Part shown: positions 3,511 to 28,966 of the stretch, piece after piece | How the letters are laid out: each line of letters begins with the position of its first letter | How positions within the stretch are numbered: position 1 is the first letter of the stretch | Source: Mustelus asterias | Lineage: Eukaryota | Assembly (NCBI RefSeq): GCF_964213995.1 | Contig: NC_135815.1 | Coordinates: 42,222,001 to 42,286,000 of the forward strand | Length of the DNA: 64,000 nt | Direction of reading: 5' to 3' | Notes under the pieces: model-generated | Database searches by the model: none | The model's input: only the letters and a program-made list of their open reading frames with translations | What the model was told of the DNA's origin: nothing | Program-made: the position numbers and the translations under genes

Positions 3511-3528
3511 ACTTATTGGGTCAGAAAG

Positions 3529-3740
3529 ATGTGGAGTTGCCGGTGTTGGACTGGGGTAGGCACAGTAAGTCGTCTCACAACACCAGGTTAAAGTCCAACA
3601 GGTTTATTTGGTAGCACGAGCTTTCGGAGCGCTGCTCCTTCATCAGGTGAGCACTCATCTGATGAAGGAGTGGCGTTCCGAAAGCTCGTGCTACCAAATA
3701 AACCTGTTGGACTTTAACCTGGTATTCTGAGACTACTTAC
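3529..3740. mobile_element. Palindromic Penelope-like element fragment with hammerhead motifs (copy 1)
   Basis: Long inverted arms; CTGATGA-GGAGC/GCTCC-GAAAGCTC core on both strands (3615-3649 minus, 3656-3690 plus); flanking duplication TGGGTCAGAAAG at 3517-3528 and 3741-3752. Confidence 0.8.
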
Positions 3741-3827
3741 TGGGTCAGAAAGAGGCTGATCAAAAAAAATCCTTCTGAACACATTTTAAAAGCTCTTCTC
3801 CTTATCTGACCTGTACAATATTGCTTT

Positions 3828-4055
3828 GATGTGGAGATGCCGGCGTTGGACTGGGGTAAGCACAGTAAGAAGTCTCACAACACCAGGTTAAAGTCCAACA
3901 GGTTTATTTGGTAGCAAATACCATAAGCTTTCGGAGCAATGCTCCTTCGTCAGATGGAGTGGACTCCATCTGACGAAGGAGCATTGCTCCGAAAGCTTAT
4001 GGTATTTGCTACCAAATAAACCTGTTGGACTTTAACCTGGTGTTGTGAGACTTCT
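3828..4055. mobile_element. Palindromic Penelope-like element fragment with hammerhead motifs (copy 2)
   Basis: 96-bp inverted arms 3865-3960 / 3963-4058; core CCAT-CTGACGA-A-GGAGCattGCTCC-GAAAGCTT-ATGG on both strands; TSD TACAATATTGCTTT at 3814-3827 and 4056-4069. Confidence 0.85.
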
Positions 4056-4989
4056 TACAATATTGCTTTCCCAGTTTCTATTAGGATAATTTAAGTCCTC
4101 CATTATCACTACACTTACCATTCTTACTCCTCTCTTATTTCCTTGCAAATTTGCTCCTCTGTATCTTTGTAAAGACACCTATTGTTTCTTAACTATGCTG
4201 CCCTTTGTTGCTCCAGGACATTATCTCCTTCAAACGCTATAATATTCCCCCAAATCACTGCTACCAATCCATCTCCTTTATTTTCTTCCCCATCTGTCCT
4301 GAACACACTGTACTCAGGAAGATCTGACTTGGTCCACCTCTTAGAGTTGCATCATAACAAAGGGAGGGTTGGGATGACAGGTACAGGAAGTTTCGGCTCC
4401 TCTCCATTCTAAGTTAACATTGGAGCAGATACATAGCAGAACATGGTTCTGCCGAAATTCCAGGCCCACCACCCAACCCAATACCCCCTGAAAACTTGTA
4501 TCACTGGATCATCATGCTGTCATCCCAGCCCAAAGAATTGCAAGGAACAGGAGTTTATGCTCAATTCCTATACGAGCTCCAGTGCCTACCTTAGCAGTAA
4601 AACAAGATTCACCATTAACCATTCTGTCTGCTATCCCAGATTATTAAATTTATTCATTCAAGGTCTTGTTCAGCTCATACAATACGAGAGCTTCTCTAAG
4701 AAAGCTGACTCTGTGTTCAACACAAAAATAAAAGTAACAAATATTCACATAAATCTAAAGATAGAATCTGTCCACAAAAACTTTGATAATTTTCTCCAGC
4801 ATTTATCTGGTGCACACTCCAATAGTGTTAAAAAAATATAGATAGGACAGGCAAGTTCCAAACATAATCACAGATATAACACAGTAGAAATTTCTGCCAA
4901 ACACATGTTAGAAACTGTCAACTGGGTAGATGCAAGTTAAACAGCTACGGCAGTGTTTTTTTTGGTAAAGGAAACCTTTTCATGCTACA

Positions 4990-9289: not shown

Positions 9290-10490
9290 AAGTCTCTGAA
9301 AGTATTGATTTTATTGGTGAAATGGGGGGGTATTGATTTTTATTGGTGGAATGGGGGGGGGGCGGAGCAAGAGAATAAATTCTGAACCAAGAAATTTAAA
9401 ACCAATGACAGTATCATTTGTGAATGGCAAATAGTCTCCAAACAATGGCACTTCTATCGGTGGACTAACATTTTTCATCTCATTATAGAATAATCTGAAT
9501 TATATAGGTGTAAGGGAGATACTTTGATGAGCAAGTTGGGGGGAGGGCAATATCTCCAAATCACAATACATTGATGGGTTGGTACGGCCCAAATGCTGAT
9601 ACTTATATTGGTGTGTAAAGGATTAAATTCTATTAAAAGTACAAAAGGTGTGTGGTCTGTACGTTGTCGGATGGGGACAGATTTTTAAACTTCAGTATCT
9701 TGACGGATGAAGCGGTATCTGAAACTTTGATATTTTGATGAGAGAAAAGTTGGTCTCTGAATTTAAGTGTCCAAAACTGGATGGGTGATGGGGTGTTAGG
9801 AGTGTTAGGATACTTGTTAGGAGAATAAGGGTACAAAAGGCATTTTGATGTGTGACTACAGGTGATCTCTGAACATTGACATTTTGATGGGTGCCATGAT
9901 GTGGAGATGCCAGCCTTGGACGGGGGTGGCACAGTATGAAGTCTCACAACACCAGGTTAAAGTCCAACAGGTCTATTTGGAATCACGAGCTTTCGGAGCA
10001 CTGCTCCTTCATCAGGTGAGCCTCCTGATCAAAAAGCAGTACTCCAAAAGCTCGTGATTCCAAATAAACCTGTTGGACTTTAACCTGGTGTTGAGAGACT
10101 TATTTTAATGGGCGCGTAGGGGGCAATCTTTGAACCTGAATACTTGGGTGGGTGTGATCTATGAAGCTTAATGTTTCGATGGGGAGGGTCGGGTATTCTC
10201 TGAAACTTGATATTGTGTTGTGTCGCTAGGGGTGGTCTCAACCTCTATATTGTCATTTGGTGAGTATAGGTATTCTCTGAAACTCGATATTTTGATGAGT
10301 GAACGAGGGTCGTTTCTGAAGATGGATATTTCGATTGGTGGGTTGGGATGCTTTTCTGAGCTGATATTTTAAATGGACGAGTGGGGCCCACGGTGCATTC
10401 GATATTTTAAATATGCAAGTGGTGGGTAATCTTCAAACCTGGGCATTTTAATGCGCCAGTCGGGGTGGATATTTTGACTGGGCGGGCGGG
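9290..10490. repeat. Degenerate ~35-40 bp tandem repeat (TCTCTGAAACTTGATATTTTGATGGGTG-like)
   Basis: Related units near 9291, 9716, 9866, 10197, 10273, 10315, 10355, 10399, 10431, 10467. Confidence 0.6.
9898..10101. mobile_element. Palindromic Penelope-like element fragment (copy 3)
   Basis: Same family as 3529-3740; intact hammerhead core on minus arm (9984-10018), decayed core on plus arm; degenerate flanking duplication ATTTTRATGGGYGC. Confidence 0.75.
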
Positions 10491-10519
10491 AGGTTGGGTT
10501 AGTGCAAGGACCTCGGTAC

Positions 10520-10679
10520 CTTTGAGGGGTGGGAGAAGCAGGATCTCGACCGGGCTGCTCCGACTCCTGAACTGCGACGATCCCTGCGATCTCTTCTGCC
10601 TGGCCGCTTTCCGCACGGATTTCCTGGTGAAACCATCCACTTTTTCCGCCGCTGTCACCACGGCTGCCGCCGCCGACAT
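10520..10679 (-). CDS. PPP2R5A: PP2A regulatory subunit B56-alpha, first coding exon (gene continues beyond left edge)
   Basis: ATG 10679-10677; [53 protein letters not shown] matches the B56-alpha N-terminus; phase-1 GT donor after 10520; synteny with DTL and INTS7. Confidence 0.93.
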
Positions 10680-11960: not shown

Positions 11961-12033
11961 CTTTCTGTAGTGTAGTGGTTATCACGTTCGCCCCACACGC
12001 GAAAGGTCCCCGGTTCGAAACTGGGCAGAAACA
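11961..12033 (+). tRNA. tRNA-Val(CAC)-derived gene, probably a pseudogene
   Basis: 73-nt match to vertebrate tRNA-Val-CAC with intact A and B boxes; G1 changed to C (C1-C72 mismatch), U33 changed to C; no oligo-T terminator immediately downstream. Confidence 0.8.
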
Positions 12034-15774: not shown

Positions 15775-15943
15775 ACAAAAGCAAACTAGTGCAGACACTG
15801 GAAATCTGAAATAAAAAAGAAAATGTTGGAAATGCGCTGTGGAGACAAACAGTTAGCATTTTAGGTCAATGACCTTTCATCAGATTAGTTCTGATGAAAA
15901 GTTATTGACATGAAATGTTAACTCTCCACAATTCCTGCCTGAC
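15775..15943. mobile_element. Old palindromic Penelope-like fragment with decayed hammerhead motifs
   Basis: Inverted pair GACCTTTCATCAG / CTGATGAAAAGTTATTGACATGAAATGTTAAC; related to 50215-50345; truncated on the right by the 15944 duplication. Confidence 0.55.
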
Positions 15944-27350: not shown

Positions 27351-28550
27351 TAATCAGGAGTGTCTTAAACAAAGATAGAGAGACAGAGAGTTTAGGGAGG
27401 GAAGTCCAGTGCTGAAGACCTTAGGCATAGCTGTCGGTGATGGAATGATTAAAATCAGGAATGTGCAAGAGTCCAAAATTGGGGAAGCACAGAGATCTTG
27501 GGTGGGTTGAAGAGCTGGAGGAACTTAGAGGTAGGGAGGAGTCAGGCCAAAGAGAGATTTATGAACAAGGTTGAGAGTTTTTATATCACAACATTGTAGA
27601 GTGGGAACCAGTGTGGGTTAATGAGTACAGGGTGAATGGAATTTAGATCGACTTAGGAAACAGGCTGCAGTTTTGGATTCGCTCAAGTTCATGGAGGGTG
27701 CAAGGTAAGAGATTAACCACGGGAATGATTTGAACATCTAAAAAGTTGTTGGAAAAGGGACAAACTAAGAAGGTGGCTTTTCAAAAAATGTGTACTGAAG
27801 CCCAAACTGATATACTACCCACAATATGTTCTACTGCCAACATACTGTAGGGTGGGACATTGCAATTTTGTATTTTTAATCATTATCACATGATTTTTGT
27901 GCACGCATGCTATACATGTGAAGATTCCAGTCCATCTAATACAACCTACTTCTTCATCTGAGTGTTCTATTTATTCTCAGGAAACAGGCTCTTCCTAAGT
28001 TCAGTCACAACCATTGCCAGTACAGACTCGGGAGCCTTATTTCCTAAAAGGCAATAACCATAAAATATATGATCACATTATACAATCCTTCCTTGTTAAG
28101 ACTGTTGTGCTAAACTGCTTTTTAAAAAAATCATTAATCATGATCAGAATGGTGACCAAGCAGCTGAGTAATTGTATGGCATACATAAACTTTAGGTAAT
28201 AGTTCTGCTTGAAAAAGAACACTGTCAAAAGGTCTAAATTAGAACTCTTCCTCCCCTCCCGGATGCCTTCTAAACACATGATGAGAAGGCATTGGGAACA
28301 GATGGCATGTAGGTAAATACCAGGTGTTTCTCTAAAGACCTGAATGCAGGGCCGCAAAAGGTTTAATGGCTTCACCAGTGATTAAAATCAATAAATGCAA
28401 GTTCAATTGCCATTTCCTACAAACTGCATCACTAACCTCAGCCACTACTAAATTCAACATACTCCAATCACTCATCTACCATCCATTTCTATCAGAATTC
28501 ATATAATTATTAACATCCTTCACCTCACTTAGCACTGTGTAAGTCTCACA

Positions 28551-28834
28551 GCGTAAGAGTTTTAACAACACCAGGTTAAAGTCCAACAGGTTTATTTGGT
28601 AGCAAATGCCATTAGCTTTCGGAGCCCTGCTCCTTCGTCAGATGGAGTGGATATCTGCTCTCAAACAAGGCACACAGACGCCTTGTTTGTGAGCAGATAC
28701 CCACTCCATCTGACGAAGGAGCAGGGCTCCGAAAGCTAATGGCATTTGCTACCAAATAAACCTGTTGGACTTTAACCTGGAGTTGTTAAAACTCTTACTG
28801 TGTTTACCCCAGTCCAACGCCAGCGTCTCCACAT
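28551..28834. mobile_element. Palindromic Penelope-like element fragment with hammerhead motifs (copy 4, opposite orientation)
   Basis: About 120-bp inverted arms; core CCAT-CTGACGA-A-GGAGCaggGCTCC-GAAAGCTA-ATGG (28706-28742 and opposite arm); TSD TAAGTCTCACA at 28540-28550 and 28835-28845. Confidence 0.85.
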
Positions 28835-28966
28835 TAAGTCTCACACCCACATCTCATGCCTTACATACATGCTTGCTGTTCAACCATGTTGGCCATATTG
28901 CCTAAACAGATTGCACAATACTCACTAACACATTTCCCTGTCTCCTGCAGAAGATGGCCCACAACC

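Follow-up and report, generated by a model that had tools for sequence, protein, structure and literature searches.

Minimal type I hammerhead ribozymes (min-HHR) have been described in the pseudo-LTRs (pLTRs) of metazoan Penelope-like elements (PLEs) by Cervera and De la Pena (2014, PMC4209133), and also by Lunse et al. (as cited in PMC6765202). The published motifs have a CUGANGA core, one additional base that separates position 9 from position 10.1, a G10.1-C11.1 pair, palindromic positions 15.2-16.2, no stem III and a short stem I, fall into several subfamilies with compensatory changes and mostly truncated copies, and in Schistosoma form opposite-strand pairs 100-700 bp apart (PMC4209133). 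The family described here resembles them in each of these points. It differs from the Schistosoma motifs in stem II (5-6 bp here, with a stem I of 3-4 bp, against 7-8 bp) and from published PLE min-HHR in its CUC/CUU/CUA triplets, and its copy number is far above the ~4,000 of coelacanth and ~9,000 of Xenopus, which were found by another method (PMC4209133). Two supplement files of that paper contained no shark term, and its remaining file may list a shark motif. A literature search on Penelope elements and hammerheads in sharks returned no paper on the present family, for which a Repbase or Dfam entry may well exist.

EN+ PLEs of the Neptune type (Craig et al. 2021, PMC8557442; Arkhipova et al. 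2013, PMC3846280) carry a single ORF in which RT is followed, at the C terminus, by GIY-YIG, form pLTRs from partial tandems, and typically insert with an inverted 5'-truncated copy, a 30-40-bp tail at one end and a target duplication. The present element shares all of this and the CX2-5CxxC linker between RT and EN (PMC8557442, PMC3846280), a mark of both Neptune and Nematis (PMC8557442). In PAc, the Poseidon element of Anolis carolinensis (Frangieh et al. 2024, PMC11167929), two internal 3' ends likewise define the tail and the hammerhead lies upstream; the cutting of both target strands by PAc, followed by extension, would explain inverted pairs. However, PAc belongs to the Penelope/Poseidon clade, and its ORF starts inside the hammerhead (PMC11167929), whereas here the ATG is ~130 nt downstream of the core. 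The intronic hammerheads of amniotes (RECK, CTCL, DTNB; PMC6155905) are also of type I, lie in host introns and are by inference derived from retroelements. Unlike those, which are conserved across species, the present ones are young repeats among tens of thousands, each core is covered by its own antisense arm, and one copy (copy 2, below) is absent in a relative. Both the motif class and the PLE architecture are, then, already known.

In the window, that is, the whole stretch of 64,000 nucleotides analysed, we found four copies of the family, all of them with an inverted 5'-truncated structure and a one-sided tail; these copies and the features that go with them are as follows:

3530..3740, no strand: copy 1, two PLE 3' ends, both 5'-truncated, in a divergent inverted pair
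3517..3529 (left) and 3741-3753 (right), + strand: target-site duplication of copy 1, 13 bp, read from the sequence
3828..4058, no strand: copy 2, perfect 96-bp palindrome plus a tail (~35 extra bases) on the left (-) arm
3814..3827 (left) and 4056-4069 (right), + strand: target-site duplication of copy 2, 14 bp
9899..10105, no strand: copy 3, older palindromic pair with a decayed target duplication
28551..28834, no strand: copy 4, longer-armed palindrome outside PPP2R5A, tail on the right (+) arm
28540-28550 and 28835-28845: target-site duplication of copy 4, 11 bp
10520..10679, - strand: first coding exon of PPP2R5A (B56-alpha), best match human B56-alpha

An earlier note on this DNA had described copies 1 and 2 as adjacent hairpins with minimal hammerhead cores on both strands, and this is borne out by the core positions given below and by the complementarity of the arms, which is 92% in copy 1 (3563-3651/3654-3742) and 100% in copy 2 (3865-3960/3963-4058). 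Copy 1, with a tail of ~34-35 nt on its left (-) arm, belongs to an older subfamily of the CAC/GUG type, and its left arm matches the full-length element L226 at 111/123 positions. Copy 2 is of the young CCAU/AUGG subfamily; its left arm equals the 3' pLTR of the ORF-bearing L226 over 132/132 bases, and the initial three letters of its right target duplication are common with the element end. The placement of the hairpins in PPP2R5A intron 1 also proved correct: the exon at 10679-10520 (-) had human B56-alpha as its top match (6nts_B, E 3.9e-16; epsilon, E 1.5e-11), and the next B56 exon lies ~65 kb downstream of exon 1, on the same strand and in a compatible splice phase. The intron begins at 10519, is ~65 kb long and extends beyond the window start.

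Some other features of the window were recorded. A tRNA match at 11961-12033 (+; Rfam, 50.2 bits), presumably resembling tRNA-Val with several non-standard pairs, lies upstream of PPP2R5A, ~1.3 kb from its start codon. Two inverted pairs of 99% identity, 15944-16610/54089-54755 (37 kb apart, with a SINE-like repeat and other sequence inside) and 12624-13092/17934-18409 (5 kb apart), are recent duplications, inversion ends or assembly features. A short palindrome at 15852-15922 holds two decayed CUGAUGA cores that differ in sequence from those of the present family, and is probably the stub of a second PLE hammerhead family; loci L035 and L056 have similar motifs.

The hammerhead cores of the four copies are these:

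3615..3649, - strand: copy 1 core, minimal type I hammerhead, sense to PPP2R5A, CAC/GUG with CUC, predicted cut after 3618
3656..3690, + strand: copy 1 right-arm core, stems weakened; antisense in the pre-mRNA, with 3615-3649 as its predicted pairing partner there
3921..3957, - strand: copy 2 core, minimal hammerhead, sense to PPP2R5A, CCAU/AUGG with CUU, predicted cut after 3925
3966..4002, + strand: copy 2 right-arm core, antisense in the pre-mRNA
9984-10018, - strand: copy 3 core, intact-looking
28609-28645 (- strand) and 28706-28742 (+ strand): copy 4 cores

Each arm is laid out as stem I, CUGANGA, A, stem II, GAA, AGCU, H and stem I'. In the + arm of copy 1 both stems are weakened by wobble, stem II reading GGAGU/GUUCC and stem I containing a U-G pair. 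The CUGANGA...GAAA pattern matches at 9991-10015 (-) in copy 3, the + arm core of which is dead, and at 28617-28641/28710-28734 in copy 4. Direct reading of the cores gave the stem I pairs and triplets that had been claimed (CAC/GUG-CUC, CCAU/AUGG-CUU and CCAU/AUGG-CUA for copies 1, 2 and 4, respectively); the covariation of stem I claimed with them is real between subfamilies, but within the window it comes down to a single base pair, whose change from C-G to U-A is the marker of one subfamily. A loose core pattern matched 14 times in the window, a modest excess over chance (shuffled mean 6.27, maximum 13), and a descriptor requiring, in addition, at least 4 pairs in stem II matched 7 times, always at family cores. 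A chance origin of the cores is ruled out by one exact core pattern: across the 3.68-Gb genome it matched 52,093 times, and its reversed control 0 times. Rfam scans of the window and of one native pLTR returned no hammerhead match, which is no evidence against the motif because its stripped form falls below those models.

Hammerheads are numbered by a common scheme in which position 17 is any base but G, and catalysis needs G8 and G12. To sample the family we took 120 evenly spaced 10-kb stretches (1.2 Mb) and an anchor outside the hammerhead; 43/111 arms had no parsable core, being truncated or decayed, and 11/68 were dropped for missing upstream stem-I context, leaving 57. Position 17 in these was U in 30, A in 17, C in 9 and G in 1, where the G follows a one-base deletion. 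The bulge A and G10.1 were present in 57/57, position 11.1 was C in 48 and U in 9, and the AGCU segment was present. The invariant core of PLE min-HHR (C3 U4 G5 A6 G8 A9 G12 A13 A14 and A15.1-U16.1) was intact in 48/57, an upper estimate since some of the dropped arms are mutated. On every sequence feature tested the cores belong to the PLE minimal hammerheads; G8 is required for hammerhead catalysis (PMC11167929).

That the hairpins are PLE ends, as the earlier note had proposed, was supported by full-length copies, by their RT and by the match of copy 2 to L226. Ten of the 16 loci fetched around long open frames had a pLTR-ORF-pLTR organization with a core before and after the ORF, and several of them an inverted truncated copy upstream. 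The full-length element consists of a pLTR, an ORF of 892-893 aa (RT and a GIY-YIG-type end) and a second pLTR, in a unit of 3.0-3.1 kb; the hammerhead lies ~130 nt upstream of the ATG, at which the tail ends. RVT_1 was above cut-off in the ORFs of L221, L226, L060 and L051. The GIY-YIG profile stayed below it (21.1 vs 22.6 bits, E 3.9e-4) and appeared only in L052 among five proteins scanned; at this end there is a VYLI..WYIGET motif preceded by a C-X4-C-X2-C linker. A GIY-YIG search of the genome found mostly another PLE family, with loci linked to the present one among the matches, and atlas look-alikes of the ORF protein showed RVT_1, HTH_animal and partly GIY-YIG. Copies were counted by exact sequence patterns; the initial 30 matches shared a 3' part, stopped at one or the other of two 3' ends and began at any distance upstream, the longest extending into an ORF. 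Two full-length ORFs are identical at 2,675/2,679 bases, so the family is young. It is an EN+ Penelope-like element, and the linker, a mark also of Nematis, points to the Neptune type.

Several observations concern the pLTR and its copies. Further conserved hairpins are present in the pLTR (L226:5026-5295, window 3829-3910): one lies just upstream of the hammerhead, and in the minimum free energy (MFE) fold a stem between body and tail encloses the shorter 3' end, a candidate structure for an RT start site. AAUAAA occurs ~10-20 nt after the core. In L250, L105 and L180 there are arms with the ORF start joined straight to the pLTR, and in L250 the junction is identical in both arms, which implies one template. 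Many small contigs (e.g. G000:C35, C62, C235, C247 and C489) carry the element with an open frame of one and the same length, 444 aa, perhaps through the amplification of one copy within a larger repeat.

The same 1.2-Mb survey showed how the inverted pairs are built. After one of 112 anchor matches, cut by a locus end, had been dropped, and with convergent neighbours not scored as pairs, there were 111 arms in 78 insertions, 33 of them divergent pairs and 45 solo; extrapolation gives ~340,000 arms genome-wide. In 32/33 divergent pairs the tail was on exactly one arm. Two, one or no full cores were present in 15, 8 and 10 pairs, respectively, and the centres were scattered above, inside and below the hammerhead, with an anchor-to-anchor spacing of -18 to 1,284 nt. 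Since 10/33 pairs lack a full core and the centres vary, palindrome formation is independent of the ribozyme. On the behaviour of PAc, we propose that the element endonuclease would cut both target strands 11-14 bp apart, that the two resulting 3' ends would prime reverse transcription at two internal start sites, one giving the short end and the other the tail end, and that a divergent palindrome would arise when the two truncated cDNAs are joined; the published alternative is self-priming by fold-back. As to the ribozyme, the PLE literature suggests that in a tandem pLTR-ORF-pLTR transcript two hammerheads may pair via AGCU and cut weakly, probably with an element protein, and that selection for cleavage would act on source elements only. 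We are highly confident that each hairpin is one PLE insertion of two back-to-back 5'-truncated 3' pLTRs, and that its hammerhead is carried along as a passenger, which is likely to cut only within the RNA of the element and which, by prediction, is held in a closed fold within the PPP2R5A pre-mRNA.

Whether the family bears the mark of selection for cleavage, as had been suggested, depends on where one looks: between subfamilies the motif does look selected for the hammerhead fold, whereas selection on the inserted genomic copies is not supported, since they show CpG decay of G12 and G8. We compared 28 haplotypes, hand-picked to span the subfamilies. The core letters were invariant, in part by construction because all 28 came from core-intact matches, and position 7, position 17 and loop II were variable, in agreement with the free variation of the stem II loop noted earlier. 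Of the stem cells, 95.8% were paired, and 5/10 pairs changed on both sides, against 0/500 shuffles and at most 1 in slid controls, although these covariation counts are inflated by related rows; in stem I the covariation comes for the most part from a single pair (C-G 21, U-A 7) and goes back to one event that was then inherited. The comparison upheld compensatory changes in stems I and II. In the sampled copies the core is about as variable as the flank immediately downstream: non-CpG core positions departed from the family majority in 5/513 cases and the downstream flank in 23/1,881 (both sets intact-biased). Between the two subfamilies with full-length copies, 42/60 nt agree upstream and 46/48 downstream of the core. 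With a 48-nt flank as conserved as the core, conservation alone cannot single out catalysis.

In the subfamily to which copies 2 and 4 belong, the catalytic G8 and G12 each sit in a CpG. Intact cores numbered 25,378, the lethal G12A occurred 1,766 times and its CpG partner C11.1U 1,705 times (P 0.31), the balance expected of symmetric methyl-CpG decay. At the other CpG the tolerated C7U (2,474) exceeded the lethal G8A (1,310; ratio 1.9, P 5e-81), an excess that we read as sources bearing U7 plus effects of sequence context on mutation, though selection on copies may also play a part. Each catalytic G is lost in 5-7% of otherwise intact cores. In counts made by hand on the first 100 listed arms per class, G8A was found in both arms of 5 pairs vs 0.62 expected (Poisson P 5e-4), with 3 vs 0.84 for G12A, 3 vs 1.17 for C7U and 1 vs 0.81 for C11.1U; the sample is small, the expectation comes from 12 intact-intact pairs, and age differences among copies inflate it. 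Both arms often share one template change or were later homogenised, and template origin, RT error and conversion are all compatible with this, no dead-core haplotype having been established as recurrent between loci. Dead cores in both arms fit the unimpaired in vitro insertion by hammerhead mutants of the anole element. Pairs with the same dead core (G8A or G12A) in both arms can be seen in G000:C1, C2 and loci L241-L248.

In run X24, from a related organism, one contig joins 3813 to 4056, which is the empty site of copy 2, and runs on into copy 1, entering its right arm. This makes copy 2 a recent insertion and copy 1 an older one. Equal depth on both sides of copy 2 in run X21 hints at the same empty site. 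The contigs of relatives break inside the hairpins.

Three readings other than the one preferred here have to be weighed. The earlier note had envisaged that the three sense cores could dimerise through AGCU in the PPP2R5A pre-mRNA, unless the hairpins sequester them; cutting of intron 1 in this way, with altered splicing or transcript level, appears very improbable. Five letter-intact sense cores in the 150.5 kb of the gene read (a 6-kb gap left out), the ~300 nt between copies 1 and 2, and the conserved intronic hammerheads known in amniotes (PMC6155905) speak for it. However, the gene has antisense cores just as often (5 intact and 2 mutated), and with the arms divergent, transcription of either strand yields the complement of a core ahead of the core itself. 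In folding models, which ignore helicases, ADAR editing and RNA-binding proteins able to open hairpins, each core pairs with its antisense arm, as the sequestration clause of the note had it, and forcing the hammerhead fold would cost 46.0, 63.5 and 47.9 kcal/mol in copies 1, 2 and 3. The predicted probability of stem II is 0.0 in nascent transcripts ending right after the core vs 0.88 in the native L226 pLTR; in the native youngest subfamily (L221) stem II is predicted to form, with a stem I probability of 0.0. The AGCU duplex is worth only ~-2.5 kcal/mol, and cofolding of the cores of copies 1 and 2 predicted no AGCU dimer. PLE minimal hammerheads have low activity even as dimers (PMC4209133), the anole hammerhead required protein (PMC11167929), and copy 2 is restricted to a lineage. 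A domesticated intronic hammerhead would be recognized by its conservation at orthologous sites and by a fold that stays accessible in the pre-mRNA; copy 2 is absent in X24, and the predicted cost of 46-64 kcal/mol argues against such a fold. Probably, then, the hammerheads are locked by their mirror-image arms and cut nothing here. Outside the window, L063 and L067, in PPP2R5A introns, have sense cores with an antisense core upstream at ~0.4 and 1.7 kb, respectively.

Hardly more credible is that the palindromes are a non-autonomous, retrozyme- or MITE-like hairpin element copied as a unit and processed by its hammerheads. Short palindromes with target duplications are indeed common, and a preprint derives animal retrozymes from pLTRs (10.64898/2026.07.22.740005), but the centre differs at each locus, on which ground we rejected a palindrome copied as a unit; moreover, the pairs without a full core, the arms that sort by the autonomous element's subfamilies and merge without a break into copies with an ORF, and the lack of tandem arrays in the loci read all weigh against it. 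A non-LTR retrozyme, made of head-to-tail tandems, was also discarded, the window copies being divergent inverted pairs contiguous with autonomous pLTR sequence. We give somewhat more room, while still thinking it unlikely, to a motif that is non-catalytic even in source elements and is retained in the pLTR as a signal for protein binding or for folding, a reading that agrees with ours on the origin of the hairpins. It would account for the normal in vitro insertion of anole hammerhead mutants and the lack of RNA reads ending at the cut site (PMC11167929), for the G8A cores in both arms and for a flank as conserved as the core. It would not account for a position 17 that is G in only 1 of 57 arms, and there after a deletion, or for position 7 and loop II varying freely between subfamilies while the catalytic letters stay constant, and related motifs do cleave in vitro (PMC4209133, PMC11167929). 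Most likely the hammerhead is active in the tandem RNA of the element, if weakly and aided by protein.

The copies look like neutral debris, and PPP2R5A is probably unaffected by them. The value of the family lies elsewhere. With its near-identical full-length copies, a PLE of the Neptune type can be set beside the single one examined in vitro. As copies run to tens of thousands, the purpose of a PLE hammerhead can be approached by counting: paired counts at the CpGs tell decay in copies apart from selection on source elements, and the paired arms record the making of the inverted structure. We also consider, as a speculation with little probability, that a young, intact Neptune-type element has strewn ~340,000 pLTR arms, most with a hammerhead, through the genome, the ribozyme being dispensable in the copied 3' pLTR, as dead cores in both arms suggest, and that sense intronic solo copies could pair in trans via AGCU and cut host pre-mRNAs when the element protein is expressed, which is conceivable because solo copies (45/78 sampled insertions) are not trapped in a hairpin. 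If true, host pre-mRNAs would carry a genome-wide ribozyme load switched by the transposon.
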